Origin: an uncultured Candidatus Saccharibacteria bacterium
GTDB lineage: Bacteria > Patescibacteriota > Minisyncoccia > UBA9983
Reading direction: 5' to 3'
Length of the DNA stretch: 64,000 nucleotides
Assembly: GCA_964372755.1 (NCBI GenBank)
Contig: CAYJQX010000004.1
Coordinates: 10,766-74,765 of the forward strand
Positions within the stretch are counted from its first letter, which is position 1, and the number at the start of each line of letters is the position of its first letter. The notes under the pieces are model-generated. The model was not told the DNA's origin and ran no database searches. It was given only the letters and a program-made list of their open reading frames with translations. A program made the translations under genes and the position numbers. Shown piece after piece: positions 3,917-51,852 of this stretch.

Positions 3917-4010
3917 GTTTCGAAAAAGAAGGGTTTCTGAAAATTTAGAAAAATCGTCAACATTATGGCGATTTTTTGATTTTTGGCTATAATAAAAGAG
4001 GCTAAAATAT

Positions 4011-4081
4011 GGGGGTTTAGTTAAGTGGTACCCGCCCGACTGAATGATCTCTAAGGCTTTAGTCGTTCGGGCGGGTAACGG
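4011..4081 (+). other. tRNA-like 5' fragment (pseudo-tRNA-Trp leader) interrupted by a GC-rich hairpin. It is not a foldable tRNA.
   Basis: gggggtttagttaagtggta (4011-4030) resembles the 5' acceptor/D region of the downstream tRNA-Trp (gggggtgtaggcttaacggtaa). An 8-bp stem cccgcccg/cgggcggg (4031-4038 and 4068-4075) follows. Then taacgg resumes the D-loop. No 3' acceptor partner exists. A TATAAT lies at 3988-3993. Confidence 0.4.
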
Positions 4082-4128
4082 CGGTCTCCGAACTTAGAAA
4101 TGAGTGAGTGATAGTTTTTAAAAAAAAT

Positions 4129-4203
4129 GGGGGTGTAGGCTTAACGGTAAACTGCCTCTCTCCAAAAGAGGATTTTCAGGTTCGAGTCCTGGCACCCCCG
4201 CCA
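4129..4203 (+). tRNA. tRNA-Trp (anticodon CCA), with the 3' CCA encoded
   Basis: The acceptor gggggtg/caccccc is 7 bp. The anticodon stem is cctct/agagg with loop ctCCAaa. The T-arm is tcagg-ttcgagt-cctgg. The sequence ends in a discriminator g plus CCA. Confidence 0.8.
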
Positions 4204-6237: not shown

Positions 6238-7596
6238 ATAAGTCTGGAGATACCCCCAAGTGTGGAGCCTATCGCTATCATATGACCACTTGGCGCCAAT
6301 ATCGGTGCGATAGAGCATGTTTGGGATGACAATATTTTTGACTTTGGCGTAAACGCTTTTGCGGGCGTCCTCCACCGTGGTGCCGGTGTCGGCTACAACC
6401 ATCAAAACTCCCGATTGGCCGGCGATGCGCATAGTGCCATTATCGTACCAGACATCTTCTATGTGGATGCCTTCGTAGTCGGGATCATGTTTTTTAAAAA
6501 CAATAGCCAAATCTTTATAAACCTGAATAAGATCGCTGTTGCCTCCCGATTTGGCGAAATATGATGGCACCAAAATACGCACGCCTATCTGGAAGCCTTT
6601 TTTTGTTTTGAGCTCAAAATTTTCCCCTGAAGCCAGTTTGTAGAGCCATTCGCCGGCAGGCATGGAAATACCTTCTTGCTGTATTTGGATAGTCGGATAA
6701 CCGAAACGGGATGTCCATTCAAGAGGATAAATGCCTTTGCCGTTTACGATGCAGTTGATGTCTATATAGCCCACATATCCGGATTCGCGAAGAGCCGGAA
6801 GAGCTTTTTCTAAGGTGGCCTTAAAAATATTATTGGGTCTGCTCCAATACATCAGAGTGCCCATCTCGCCTGTCATCGGGCCGATTTCACCGGCAAAAAT
6901 TCTTTTGTGTTCGAAGTTGATGTTTATAGGGTAGATAAAATCATAGCCGTTGAAAAAAGCGCCGACGCCGATTTCCACGCCCGAGATAAATTTTTGAAGA
7001 ATAAATTTGGAAACCTTTTTTTCCCAGACATTTTTGTTTTGTTCAAAGAGCTCAATCATCTCCTTGCCGTCCTCGTCTTCACCGATAAAGAAAAGACCGC
7101 TTCCGCCCGGAGGGGTGAGACCGCTTGGTTTAAAAACATAACGGCCCGGATTGTCGCGGATAAAATTTATGGCTTCATTGTAGCTTTCGAAATTTTGATA
7201 GGGCAGAACATTGACCCCCAGTTTTTTTAACTCTGATTGGCCAAAATCTCTGTCGGCCTCCAAGCGATCGGTATAGACGCTTCCACCCACGACCTTCTTG
7301 CCTTTTTTTCGGAGCTTGTCGGCGATCTCGCCGAATTCAATATCGTCAAAAACAATCACATCGGCCCAATCCGCGTGTGATTCCCAATTGTCCACTTTTT
7401 GCACGAAGCCGTTATACACATCGGCATCGTCTTTGTTTTTTATATAAACTTTAACTTCGTTTCCTTCTTTTGCCACATGCCATGCCAAATCCCCACTTAA
7501 CGATTCCCACGAGACGAAAAGGAATTTTTTTGGCGCAGAAGGGCTTTTTCCGCCGTTGCCGTTTTCCTCCAGAGAAGCGCCGTTGCCGTTTGCCAT
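6235..7596 (-). CDS. PurD-family ATP-grasp protein (phosphoribosylamine--glycine ligase-like) with a divergent N-terminal motif and a low-complexity N-terminal tail
   Basis: The protein aligns by eye with E. coli PurD. EHKRIFAGEIGPMTGEMG corresponds to DHKRVGDKDTGPNTGGMG. IDINCIVNGKGIYPLEWTSRFGYP corresponds to [22 protein letters not shown]. The conserved N-terminal SGGREH is replaced by WESLSGD. The first 25 aa (MANGNGASLEENGNGGKSPSAPKK) are low-complexity. Confidence 0.7.
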   Translation of the reverse strand: MANGNGASLEENGNGGKSPSAPKKFLFVSWESLSGDLAWHVAKEGNEVKVYIKNKDDADVYNGFVQKVDNWESHADWADVIVFDDIEFGEIADKLRKKGKKVVGGSVYTDRLEADRDFGQSELKKLGVNVLPYQNFESYNEAINFIRDNPGRYVFKPSGLTPPGGSGLFFIGEDEDGKEMIELFEQNKNVWEKKVSKFILQKFISGVEIGVGAFFNGYDFIYPININFEHKRIFAGEIGPMTGEMGTLMYWSRPNNIFKATLEKALPALRESGYVGYIDINCIVNGKGIYPLEWTSRFGYPTIQIQQEGISMPAGEWLYKLASGENFELKTKKGFQIGVRILVPSYFAKSGGNSDLIQVYKDLAIVFKKHDPDYEGIHIEDVWYDNGTMRIAGQSGVLMVVADTGTTVEDARKSVYAKVKNIVIPNMLYRTDIGAKWSYDSDRLHTWGYLQTY

Positions 7597-7764
7597 TTTT
7601 GGTTTTTTTTGATTTAAGTTATTCGTTAAAACGAGAATAAGTTTATCTGACTAGAAAAAAACTTCCCGTAATTTTTATCATATTAGAGAAGGATAGAATG
7701 TCTAGGTGTGGATATGATTAGGGGACCAAATTCCAAATGAATCAAGAGATGGAATGCCAAGAGT

Positions 7765-8669: not shown

Positions 8670-8734
8670 TCAAGTCCCACGCGTTTCGCAAGTAGTTGCG
8701 AAACTCTCCGTCAAAAACTTACTTCGTTCTTTTT
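8670..8734 (-). repeat. Conserved tRNA 3' trailer module (hairpin gtttcgcaag-tag-ttgcgaaac plus an inverted partial T-arm copy ttcaagtcccac). It is shared with the tRNA-Glu locus.
   Basis: In tRNA orientation, about 30 nt after the 3' end comes the hairpin gtttcgcaactacttgcgaaac. Next is gtgggacttgaa, the reverse complement of the tRNA's own T-loop/stem. The trailer aligns with 51283-51348. Confidence 0.5.
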
Positions 8735-17987: not shown

Positions 17988-18791
17988 TTATTTTCTAATT
18001 TCTGCCACCACAGCCATATGATCGCTTACCCCGTCTTTAATCCCCACATTTTCCACGATATATTTCGAAGTGGAGAAAAGAACATCAACCACGTATTGTA
18101 AATCTCCGGCACGATGGAGGTTTTTATCTATAGTTGTGGTAATTTCTGGGGGAATATTGTCTTTATAATTTGAAGCTAAAAGGTTGAAGATCTCTCGTCC
18201 GCGCGGAGCGTTCATGTCTCCGCACAAAATAATTTCTGGATATTTCTTGAGACAGTGAAGTAATGTAGCAATATCTCTCCTTTGCCAATCATCTATGTGA
18301 CCCTCGTGGGTCCAAGTGAAATGAGTGTTGGCTACAGAGAATTTTTTGCCGTTTTTTTCTATCACGCAAACAAGGAGCATCCTGTTGTAGGAACCAGGAT
18401 CTTCTTTGTTGAAATCAGGGACAAATTTTTCTGTGCCGTTGTAATAATGCACCTCATCTGAAAAAGGATACTTGGAAATGGTGGCAATGCCAGAGACTAC
18501 TTTTTGGGTGTATCCTCCAAAACTAGGCAAAACTCTGGTCATTGGAACATATTTTCCTCGCATTTCCATTTCTGACAAAAACAAAGGGAAATCTTCCTCC
18601 AGGATTTCTTGCAAGCAAACCACGTCCGGACCCTCTCTTTTTAAAAATTTCAATACGCGATCTATGTGTCGGTGTTTTTCAATGTTTACGGAAATAAGTT
18701 TGAGTGGCGGGTTGGTTAACACAAGAATTTGATTATAACGAACATCTCTGTTTGTTTCATCGATTATAACGAATATCTCTGTTTTCCTCAA
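17988..18791 (-). CDS. Endonuclease/exonuclease/phosphatase (EEP, DNase I-like) family protein
   Basis: The EEP fold is indicated by VVCLQEI...GDMNA...SDH-type motifs across 267 aa. Confidence 0.75.
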   Translation of the reverse strand: MRKTEIFVIIDETNRDVRYNQILVLTNPPLKLISVNIEKHRHIDRVLKFLKREGPDVVCLQEILEEDFPLFLSEMEMRGKYVPMTRVLPSFGGYTQKVVSGIATISKYPFSDEVHYYNGTEKFVPDFNKEDPGSYNRMLLVCVIEKNGKKFSVANTHFTWTHEGHIDDWQRRDIATLLHCLKKYPEIILCGDMNAPRGREIFNLLASNYKDNIPPEITTTIDKNLHRAGDLQYVVDVLFSTSKYIVENVGIKDGVSDHMAVVAEIRK

Positions 18792-18811: not shown

Positions 18812-18851
18812 CCAGTGAGTAATTCTGACATATGTCAGAATTACTCACTGG
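18812..18851. promoter_or_regulatory. Perfect 40-bp palindrome (20-bp arms, no spacer) about 20 bp upstream of the EEP gene start. It is a candidate operator.
   Basis: ccagtgagtaattctgacat is followed by its exact reverse complement atgtcagaattactcactgg. Confidence 0.4.
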
Positions 18852-18998
18852 GGGTTTGGAGAAATATTTTAATAAATGCCGATTCTTGGAATAATTTCTG
18901 GAATAATTTACCATCAGTCTTCTTATGTGGTAGTGTAAAAAAGAGCTCTGCCTCGGATATTTTGTCGGGTAAGTTATGATAGAGCCTTTTAAAGAAAT

Positions 18999-19034
18999 TG
19001 GGGGATCGCCTGCCTGCGCAGGCAGGTCCAATGG
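18999..19034 (+). other. Pseudo-tRNA-Gln 5' leader: a copy of tRNA-Gln nt 1-10 plus an 18-nt GC palindrome plus the D-loop continuation
   Basis: tgggggatcg is identical to the first 10 nt of the tRNA-Gln 23 nt downstream. The palindrome cctgcctgc/gcaggcagg follows. Then tccaatgg matches the tRNA's tctaatgg. Confidence 0.4.
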
Positions 19035-19056
19035 ATGAATTTTAGATGTTTTTTTT

Positions 19057-19127
19057 TGGGGGATCGTCTAATGGTAGGACAGAGGCCTTTGAAGCCTTTA
19101 ATCGGGGTCCGAATCCCTGTCCCCCAG
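19057..19127 (+). tRNA. tRNA-Gln (anticodon TTG)
   Basis: The acceptor is tggggga/tccccca. The D-arm is gtct-aatggta-ggac. The anticodon stem is gaggc/gcctt with loop ctTTGaa. The T-arm is cgggg-tccgaat-ccctg and the discriminator is g. Confidence 0.85.
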
Positions 19128-19200
19128 AATTGGTTGGAAGTTAAAAATTAGTCGCCTCATCGGCGACCCGTTGAAGGGGTGGAGATAGGCGACATTATTT

Positions 19201-51282: not shown

Positions 51283-51348
51283 TATTCGATTCCCCGACGT
51301 CTCGCAAGCAGTTGCGAGACTTGTGTTCAAATACTCGCAGACTCGTTT
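51283..51348 (-). repeat. Conserved tRNA 3' trailer module at the tRNA-Glu locus (hairpin gtctcgcaag-cag-ttgcgagac plus an inverted partial T-arm copy)
   Basis: In tRNA orientation, about 30 nt after the 3' end comes the hairpin gtctcgcaactgcttgcgagac. Next is gtcggggaatcgaataccc, an imperfect reverse complement of the tRNA T-arm. It aligns with the tRNA-Leu trailer (8670-8734). Confidence 0.5.
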
Positions 51349-51420
51349 TGACCCCACGGGGAATCGAACCCCGATTACCGCCTTGAGAAGGCGATGTCCT
51401 AACCGTTAGACGATAGGGCC
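51349..51420 (-). tRNA. tRNA-Glu (anticodon CTC)
   Basis: The reverse complement ggccctatcgtctaacggttaggacatcgccttctcaaggcggtaatcggggttcgattccccgtggggtca closely resembles E. coli tRNA-Glu. The anticodon loop is ttCTCaa and the T-arm is cgggg-ttcgatt-ccccg. Confidence 0.8.
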
Positions 51421-51476
51421 AATATTTTGTTTTTAAAATACTTTTTTCCAAAATCGTTCTTGAAATATTTTTCACG

Positions 51477-51525
51477 ACCGTTACCCGCCCGCGCGTACTC
51501 GGAAGCAGGCGGGGACGATAGGGCC
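51477..51525 (-). other. Pseudo-tRNA-Glu 5' leader: a copy of tRNA-Glu nt 1-12 plus a GC-rich hairpin plus the D-loop continuation
   Basis: On the minus strand, ggccctatcgtc is identical to the tRNA 5' end. The hairpin cccgcctgc...gcgggcggg follows. Then taacggt matches the tRNA D-loop. It lies 56 nt upstream of the tRNA. Confidence 0.4.
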
Positions 51526-51852
51526 AATGATTCATTAATCTGCTCAAAATGAGCATAGCAAAATAAACCCCTCCGCTCAATAATTAAGAGCCTCCCATAA
51601 AACAAAATAACTCCGCGTTCCTTATGTTTTAAAAAGGAAAACTAGGGGTTTGACTTATTCTCTGCTATTGCAGATAATCTAGGGTAGAGATGGATTTTAT
51701 AGGTTTACTGGTGGCGGTTGTTAGGAGGAAATACCCCCGTTTCCTTTTGTTCCTTATTTTATCATCAGTTGTATATTGTTTGCTTTTGGCGACGCCAGCT
51801 GATGACCTGCCGATTTAATAAGGAGTCTTTTTGAACTTCCGCCACCTTTTCT

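Follow-up and report, generated by a model that had tools for sequence, protein, structure and literature searches.

To judge from the published description of SegB, the closest functional analogue of the element reported here is the phage Seg system, in which an intron-free GIY-YIG gene lies beside tRNA genes and the target stays functional ('intronless homing'). Seg proteins belong to the I-TevI/UvrC lineage, carry DNA-binding modules and are more than twice as long as the protein discussed below; Seg systems are not known to have either a duplicated tRNA 5′ segment or a cognate palindrome. SegB itself, of the T4 tRNA gene cluster, is described as cleaving recipient DNA and as driving the preferred inheritance of the tRNA region and its flanks (PMC2330249). 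We analyzed 64,000 nucleotides (hereafter, the window) of contig CAYJQX010000004.1 from an uncultured Candidatus Saccharibacteria bacterium, a member of the Candidate Phyla Radiation (CPR; Patescibacteria). Three of the five tRNA genes in the window, those for Trp, Gln and Glu, are preceded by a tRNA 5′ fragment that is split by a GC-rich palindrome. We put at about 80% the probability that these modules are the surviving upstream ends of small mobile cassettes whose nuclease gene was deleted. Most likely, a selfish element inserts at the front of CPR tRNA genes, and the gene is kept working by duplication of its first 12–35 bases. The cassette protein is a bare Slx1/UPF0213-type domain of about 80 amino acids, encoded on CPR chromosomes, whereas the hosts of Seg are phages; the IMG/VR collection yielded one relative of the cassette protein (L157; L numbers denote the loci compared with the window). 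A GIY-YIG gene immediately beside its target, as in Seg systems, is present in L010, L011, L163 and L170, while the window keeps only a 19-codon remnant.

Other described systems share single features with the cassette. REP/RAYT and IS200/IS605 with PATE combine many-copy hairpins that lack target-site duplications with a small nuclease whose clade matches the hairpin subtype, and copies without an open reading frame (ORF) are the more common. This logic of a hairpin with a cognate single-domain nuclease resembles that of the cassette. The REP/RAYT and IS200/IS605 nucleases are HUH/Y1 enzymes with a fixed tetra- or pentanucleotide target, whereas the cassette enzyme is of the GIY-YIG type and the common denominator of its sites is a copy of the 5′ third of a tRNA or transfer-messenger RNA (tmRNA) gene. 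Rickettsia palindromic elements and yeast mitochondrial GC clusters are GC-rich or palindromic sequences in an AT-rich genome and can lie inside RNA genes, including tmRNA, without harm; neither is known to have a linked GIY-YIG gene or a tRNA 5′ duplication. Integrative elements with attachment (att) sites in tRNA genes also keep the gene intact through a direct repeat of a tRNA segment. The cassette differs from them in lacking a recombinase, in its cargo of about 250 bp, and in its repeat, which starts from +1, is variable in length and is interrupted by a hairpin. The open-access literature searched, which covered studies of tRNA introns in Patescibacteria and of the tmRNA database, yielded no account of such an arrangement; an earlier description is possible, but the element is apparently not yet described.

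Two scans returned relatives of the window modules. A pattern scan of species-representative genomes returned 73 loci, about 65 of them chance matches in high-GC genomes; the informative ones, from CPR or low-GC genomes, are L010, L011, L039, L047 and L072. A metagenome scan with an alignment of the nuclease proteins found a relative encoded in 558 of 600 candidates, and 80 loci were kept, 56 of CPR type and 24 of a separate clade with a different inverted repeat. The intact layout in CPR genomes consists of the native promoter, fragment A of the tRNA 5′ end, an imperfect GC-rich palindrome, fragment B, a GIY-YIG gene for about 80 amino acids and the complete tRNA. L011 (Margulisiibacteriota) shows TTGCCGGGTCGAC, the hairpin, TAATGGT and an 80-codon ORF, and 6 nt after the stop codon begins a tRNA-Gln that starts with TTGCCGGGTCGACTAATGG. 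L047 (Nomurabacteria) has a similar layout, with the ORF reduced to 36 codons by internal deletion, and L039, L072 and L154 carry modules without an ORF, as in the window. In L010 (Minisyncoccia), the cassette layout is found 5′ of tRNA-Ala, with a hairpin almost identical to the Trp hairpin of the window. At a locus composed of tsf, a small gene and tRNA-Thr, the ORF is intact in L163 and L170, from two other CPR lineages, and absent in L154, whose ClpB is 93% identical to that of the window and where an ORF-less module with a hairpin of subtype gamma precedes tRNA-Thr. Intact gene, internally deleted gene and ORF-less module form a decay series.

Among the 56 CPR-type loci, a tRNA or tmRNA gene adjoins the nuclease gene on the same strand in 51, and in 37 a same-strand tRNA lies at most 120 nt from the ORF. 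A tmRNA follows the ORF at eight of these loci (Rfam confirms seven of them, and L079 is identical to L078), with the tmRNA start falling within the last bases of a hairpin, and a tRNA follows the ORF at a further six. The cassettes have spread to at least 12 tRNA species plus tmRNA; the targets include Gln, Glu, Lys, Asn, Ile, Leu, Thr, Phe, Arg, Ala, Trp and tmRNA. The gap between the stop codon and tRNA +1 has a median of 5 nt, and for gamma-clade ORFs the tRNA's own T8-A9-G10 serves as the stop codon. The pseudo-copy spans tRNA position 1 to positions 12–35; the duplicated stretch begins no more than 3 nt from tRNA +1 in 29 of 32 loci. Excision of the hairpin raises the alignment of the pseudo-copy to the tRNA in 27 of 32 loci, and the alignment lies above every shuffle in 27 of 43. 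Among loci read by eye, most of those missed by the strict hairpin pattern have hairpins with variant arms, and L081 is the only clear pseudo-copy without a hairpin; a 44-bp direct repeat flanks its ORF. Inclusion of upstream leader in the duplication, which would imply copying from an allele already occupied, was considered and rejected as a general feature: it is seen in L081, L106 and L163 only.

Pseudo-copies that differ from the resident tRNA at paired positions are found at the window Trp locus, at the Thr locus of L154 (GCCATCT versus GCCAGCG) and in L088. Such mismatches indicate transfer between lineages and, possibly, tRNA allele replacement, and the differences of the Trp and L154 Thr pseudo-halves from the resident gene would imply a foreign origin. 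Of the five window tRNAs, the functional tRNA-Trp scores lowest with Rfam (51.8 bits), and it differs from the Trp-like half upstream in its D-arm and anticodon stem; these features are compatible with replacement of the resident allele.

Stacked pseudo-5′ fragments before one tRNA, each with a short palindrome such as TCCGCCAGCTGGCGGA or CCTGCCTGCCGGCAGGCAGG, are seen in L092 (3235–3560), L109, L119 and L132/L133, and suggest repeated invasion of the same gene; L092 has a second GIY-YIG ORF. In L083 (2285–2390), a GIY-YIG cassette precedes a tRNA-like gene, uncalled by ARAGORN and Rfam, that is apparently interrupted just after the anticodon. This interruption would fit the group I introns at position 35/36 described for Patescibacteria (PMC13011429).

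A piece of the nuclease gene is still recognizable in the window. Against 2931 six-frame fragments of the window, a profile of the alpha/beta ORF clade gave its best match in the spacer of the Glu locus (E 0.016), a profile of the gamma clade again ranked this remnant first (E 0.069), and it was also the best window match by tblastn. The spacer, 55 nt long, still encodes the last ~19 residues of the nuclease, in a frame that is fused to fragment B of the Glu locus and runs on into tRNA-Glu, as in intact ORFs. An initial reading of the window from its letters (the original prediction) needs correction here: this spacer is not anonymous sequence. Profile searches found no significant gene remnant in the Gln and Trp spacers, both too short to score, and none in the ORF-less modules of L039, L072 and L154. 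In the Trp spacer, ATGAGTGAGTGA resembles the RR(M/I/L)SE-stop ends of intact ORFs, a likeness that is suggestive only.

The window modules exceed chance expectation. Paired CCYGCCYG/CRGGCRGG arms occur in the window at these three loci only, with 11 single-arm matches against 3.5 expected, and a search of the 64 kb (40% G+C) for GC-rich perfect stems of 8 bp or more found the Trp and Gln hairpins and no others; 20 shuffles gave 0–1. After removal of the hairpin in silico, the flanks align with the adjacent tRNA 5′ end with a score of 17 at the Gln locus (maximum of 200 shuffles, 12) and of 20 at the Glu locus (shuffle maximum, 10), which rejects chance for both. The Trp fragment scores 10 against the adjacent tRNA-Trp, below the shuffle maximum of 12 and not significant. 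Without its hairpin, this fragment is a well-formed tRNA 5′ half, in which the D-stem GTTA/TAAC closes and the copy continues into the anticodon stem and loop (CTCCGAA) as far as 4093. Its score against the E. coli tRNA-Trp sequence is 17, better than against the neighboring gene. The original prediction had placed the three modules correctly and had recognized their hairpins as one family, and both points are borne out. Its statement that each fragment copies the adjacent tRNA stands for Gln and Glu and falls for Trp. A single fixed insertion place in the D-loop has to be given up, with the hairpin following tRNA positions 20 (Trp), 10/11 (Gln) and 12/13 (Glu).

The fragments are not functional as tRNAs, as had been predicted. 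No cloverleaf was found at 4011–4093, 18998–19034 or 51477–51526, where ARAGORN and Rfam make no call; in the whole window they recognize just the five genuine tRNAs. Each fragment breaks off at a tRNA position between 19 and 38, short of the T-arm and the 3′ acceptor strand. Only a subset of the window tRNAs carries a module, and nothing comparable lies upstream of tRNA-Tyr or tRNA-Leu. The TATAAT hexamer before the Trp fragment is possibly the native tRNA promoter element, and a consensus scan called no full promoter on the + strand at this locus. Two other identities of the modules were tried and rejected. The hairpins are followed by TAACGG or TCCAATGG rather than by a T-run, and a terminator scan calls none of them as an intrinsic terminator. 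A split tRNA or a tRNA intron (group I or bulge-helix-bulge) was discarded because fragment B is followed by no 3′ exon and the fragment has no 3′ partner; no Rfam intron match was found in the window. The parts of the modules are listed in Table 1.

Table 1. Parts of the three window modules and the tRNA genes behind them (positions in the window).
Feature	Position	Strand	Description
−10-like hexamer, Trp locus	3988–3993	+	TATAAT, 17 nt 5′ of the pseudo-fragment; read from sequence
Trp segment A	4011–4030	+	GGGGGTTTAGTTAAGTGGTA; tRNA positions 1–20 of pseudo tRNA 5′ half
Trp hairpin	4031–4075	strandless	Subtype gamma, CCCGCCCGACTGAA...CGTTCGGGCGGG; 45 nt, 9-bp stem
Trp segment B	4076–4093	+	TAACGGCGGTCTCCGAAC; D-stem 3′ strand, anticodon-stem 5′ strand and anticodon loop
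Trp spacer	4094–4128	+	Contains ATGAGTGAGTGA (M-S-E-stop)
Functional tRNA-Trp (CCA)	4129–4203	+	ARAGORN, Rfam
Gln segment A	18998–19008	+	(T)TGGGGGATCG; exact copy of tRNA-Gln positions 1–10/11
Gln hairpin	19009–19026	strandless	Perfect 18-nt palindrome CCTGCCTGCGCAGGCAGG; arms CCTGCCTGC / GCAGGCAGG, loop lost
Gln segment B	19027–19034	+	TCCAATGG, versus TCTAATGG in the real gene
Gln spacer	19035–19055	+	21 nt; no gene remnant detected
Functional tRNA-Gln (TTG)	19056–19128	+	ARAGORN, Rfam
Glu segment A	51514–51526	−	(T)GGCCCTATCGTC; exact copy of tRNA-Glu positions 1–12
Glu hairpin	51484–51513	strandless	CCCGCCTGC ttccgagtacgc GCGGGCGGG; one T·G pair
Glu segment B	51477–51483	−	TAACGGT; tRNA-Glu positions 13–19
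GIY-YIG gene remnant, Glu locus	51423–51479	−	In-frame REKYFKNDFGKKYFKNKI; profile positions 58–78 (C-terminus)
Functional tRNA-Glu (CTC)	51348–51421	−	ARAGORN, Rfam

The Trp hairpin belongs to subtype gamma, the Gln palindrome is an arms-only derivative, and the Glu hairpin has the family arms with a loop that we leave unclassified. Predicted folding energies are −20.7 kcal/mol (z −3.3) for Trp, −11.0 kcal/mol for Gln and −18.2 kcal/mol for Glu. The subtype of the Trp hairpin is common to L010, L072, L154 and L163, and minimal palindromes similar to that of the Gln locus are present in L092 and L101.

The hairpin pattern has 64 matches across 391 kb of CPR loci, of which about 60 belong to the family and a few do not; the window has three family hairpins. 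Insertion of the hairpins is exact: once the hairpin is taken out, the flanks form a continuous tRNA sequence without gain or loss of a base, and there is no target-site duplication. Insertion points follow tRNA positions 4, 7, 9–13 and 18–23, and by manual count TAG or TAA follows immediately 3′ in about half of the cases. Alpha hairpins are found in both orientations, nine versus five, and have conserved imperfect ends, CCCGCCTGC / GCGGGCAGG. Two hairpins lie within one fragment in L116, and related hairpins occupy different positions of the same tRNA type in L088 and L093. Hairpins are also found inside real tRNA-Lys and tmRNA genes, after position 3–4, where the terminal GGG re-creates the 5′ end. 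The 'small tRNA-targeting insertion elements' of the original prediction fit hairpins that insert precisely, without target-site duplication, in both orientations and in many tRNA types. With its short length, inverted-repeat ends, many copies and two orientations, the hairpin behaves as a mobile imperfect palindrome, an element in its own right that resembles miniature inverted-repeat transposable elements or REP sequences.

Hairpin subtype tracks nuclease clade. ORF clade 8 and singleton cluster 9 have beta hairpins in 10 of 11 cases, six other ORF clades have alpha hairpins in all 15, and the divergent gamma clade of L010 and L163 pairs with the gamma hairpin; gamma hairpin and gamma-clade ORF are combined in L010, L163 and L170. 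In L130, the ORF lies within the hairpin arms.

The ORF encodes a bare GIY-YIG catalytic domain. The protein is 77–90 amino acids long, matches PF01541 only (E 1e-15 to 1e-17) over residues 1–72, and has no detectable C-terminal DNA-binding module of the I-TevI/Seg type (TIGR01453, 19–22 bits against a cut-off of 56). Profile comparison with the Protein Data Bank returned 1zg2 (1.2e-9), 1ywl (1.4e-7) and SLX1 (7wme, 1.3e-3). The first two are the UPF0213 proteins BH0048 and EF2693, of the same sequence family and the same minimal single-domain size as the cassette nuclease, which is predicted to be a stand-alone GIY-YIG enzyme of the Slx1/UPF0213 type with a minimal domain. Close homologues number 1573 in a first clade and 183 in a second, and nearly all of the named ones are from Patescibacteria.

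The separate small GIY-YIG clade of 24 loci is mostly flanked by the inverted repeat CACCCNGTTAAATA ... TATTTAACNGGGTG and does not lie beside tRNAs. Its members are L103, L111, L113, L114, L117, L125–L127, L131, L134, L135, L137, L138, L140, L142–L145 and L147–L152, a few of them placed in the clade by protein clustering alone. The ORF follows, in L137 and L150 at least, a gene whose 3′ end looks like a four-helix bundle (23S IVS-protein-like), and L148 has an ORF-less copy of the repeat beside an ORF-bearing one.

These features can be assembled into a proposed mechanism. The predicted nuclease would break tRNA-gene DNA in its 5′ third and, because it has no DNA-binding domain and is Slx1-like, may recognize its target by the structure of the DNA instead of by sequence. 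Natural cutting points would lie at the base of a cruciform or of a folded acceptor stem, and cutting at stem bases would explain the start of the duplication at +1, the variety of tRNA species and the exactness of the hairpin borders. The break would be repaired by copying the cassette into it, and the tRNA gene would stay intact because positions 1 to x are present twice. The upstream pseudo-copy may then act as a left homology arm, which would permit homing into the same tRNA in genomes with differing flanks. Consistent with this role, the tmRNA lineage, in which the cassette lies between conserved smpB and ssrA, has no pseudo-copy. The palindrome may be a miniature element that accompanies the cassette; by interrupting the direct repeat, it would leave stretches too short for recombination. 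Cassettes without a hairpin could vanish cleanly by repeat recombination, and those with a hairpin would decay only imprecisely, leaving A-hairpin-B scars; such interruption would explain why the hairpin is almost always present and why the window relics look as they do. The scars would probably be transcribed as an inert 5′ leader and removed by RNase P. We propose tentatively, and at less than even odds, that an Slx1-like nuclease and its cognate palindrome make up an undescribed class of bacterial mobile element, one that is structure-specific and cuts folded tRNA- or tmRNA-gene DNA and hairpins at stem bases. Such a class may drive horizontal replacement of tRNA alleles.

Several points weigh against, or limit, the reading of the window modules as remains of nuclease cassettes. 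The 64-kb window has no intact nuclease gene, and its Gln and Trp loci are tied to the cassette by architecture, since their spacers yield no significant remnant. No completely empty allele was recovered for any occupied locus. In a comparison of orthologous loci by ClpB, L154 has a LAGLIDADG gene and no tRNA-Trp after tRNA-Tyr, and L155, a 77% relative, is without tRNAs at the corresponding place. An exact look-up of window proteins returned no record of ClpB, and the sole contig with the window's CYTH gene (Logan) ends short of the tRNA-Gln locus. The loci were picked by the presence of the ORF, and the tRNA association, measured for the ORF and not independently for the hairpin, therefore holds for the ORF only. 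Five gamma-like hairpins lie in viral contigs from IMG/VR (L158–L162) with no tRNA or GIY-YIG gene. One of them, CCCGCCCGACTGAACGGCTTCAGTCGTTCGGGCGGG in L161 (12244–12279; 56% G+C), is almost identical to the L010 and window Trp copies. Because of these contigs, the hairpin may have a life of its own. Its co-variation with the ORF could come from simple linkage rather than recognition. The original prediction had tied the hairpin to tRNAs and had named hairpins in related genomes without that association as evidence against it. The viral copy, of the same subtype and with no tRNA nearby, means that the hairpin is not strictly tRNA-bound; within CPR genomes it is overwhelmingly so. The cassette model also leaves the first invasion of a new tRNA species, with its junction at +1, unaccounted for. 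Finally, a 2006 survey, where it deals with this family, treats it as Slx1-like, with mostly vertical inheritance and a predicted role in repair (PMC1564403). The cassette gene departs from that picture: in a dozen tRNA species it lies within duplicated 5′ ends, and it decays there; embedding in tRNA duplications together with decay is the behavior of a selfish element.

In one rival explanation, to which the viral hairpins lend support, the palindrome alone is active: it would be a miniature transposable hairpin with a preference for tRNA-like DNA, the duplication would arise as a by-product of its insertion or repair, and the GIY-YIG genes would be unrelated passengers or later arrivals. Precise insertion in both orientations and at many positions, two hairpins in one fragment, and the hairpins inside real tRNA-Lys and tmRNA genes, with GGG restoring the 5′ end, would all follow from it. 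L081 speaks against it, with its tRNA duplication around an ORF in the absence of any hairpin, because of which the duplication can be said to need no hairpin. The near-perfect match of subtype to nuclease clade and the ORFs inside an inverted repeat, in L130 and in the second clade, are also at odds with passengers, and a lone hairpin encodes nothing able to move it. We consider this explanation unlikely.

A functional leader of the tRNA precursor, for example a decoy acceptor strand with a stabilizing hairpin that tunes RNase P processing or tRNA folding, is more improbable still. The module lies between the −10-like hexamer and the tRNA and is probably transcribed, segment A could pair with the tRNA 3′ acceptor strand at the Gln and Glu loci, and orientation by itself does not exclude an RNA role, because the palindrome folds alike either way round. 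Such a role, also raised in the original prediction, is hard to reconcile with modules at only three of five window tRNAs, with a hairpin whose position (tRNA 4–23), subtype and loop are not conserved for a given tRNA and whose orientation varies, with a Trp fragment that mismatches its tRNA, and with a nuclease gene found intact, truncated or missing, which survives in the Glu spacer as a decayed protein gene. No Rfam family matches the module. The other suggestion made there, scars of a D-loop-targeting integrase, keeps its scars and loses its integrase, the agent being a nuclease gene for about 80 amino acids in intact relatives. Integration classically leaves direct repeats of tRNA segments, and some integrative elements use 5′ parts of tRNA genes. 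An element with a tyrosine or serine integrase and a tRNA 5′ region as att site is nevertheless scarcely credible here: the window repeats are 21–55 nt apart, intact relatives enclose only an 80-amino-acid GIY-YIG gene, and no integrase gene was found beside the cassettes read in sequence or among the genes called around gamma-clade loci. The duplication, moreover, varies from 12 to 35 nt, and its upstream repeat is split by a hairpin.

If the modules are cassette remains, a tRNA 5′ fragment with a GC palindrome in front of a tRNA can be read as the footprint of past occupation by a GIY-YIG cassette. A family filed as a housekeeping Slx1-like repair nuclease would then behave as a selfish element, and a very common one, in CPR/Patescibacteria, which are otherwise poor in mobile DNA. 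Its landing sites are among the most conserved genes of the cell and would be spared by 5′ duplication, a solution different from that of introns or of att-site restoration. Should the nuclease prove structure-specific, it would be the smallest known enzyme to drive DNA mobility and attractive for biochemistry. On the practical side, the repeats probably confuse tRNA annotation and may break assemblies, as at the end of the Logan contig with the CYTH gene.

Three further observations concern sequences near the tRNA genes. In L154, an ORF of the LAGLIDADG_3 family (6768–7633) overlaps the 5′ end of tRNA-Tyr, and the window has no ORF at the corresponding place; the L154 ORF is a second kind of homing-endonuclease gene that abuts a tRNA start. 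Between the start of an Exo_endo_phos gene (17988–18791, − strand) and the Gln module, the window has a perfect 40-bp palindrome without spacer, CCAGTGAGTAATTCTGACAT / ATGTCAGAATTACTCACTGG (18812–18851), which is its longest perfect inverted repeat and possibly an operator. Two near-identical 22-nt hairpins on the − strand, GTTTCGCAACTACTTGCGAAAC (8683–8704) and GTCTCGCAACTGCTTGCGAGAC (51299–51320), lie ~27–30 nt 3′ of tRNA-Leu and tRNA-Glu; neither has a T-run, and their core motif is expected 0.09 times by chance.

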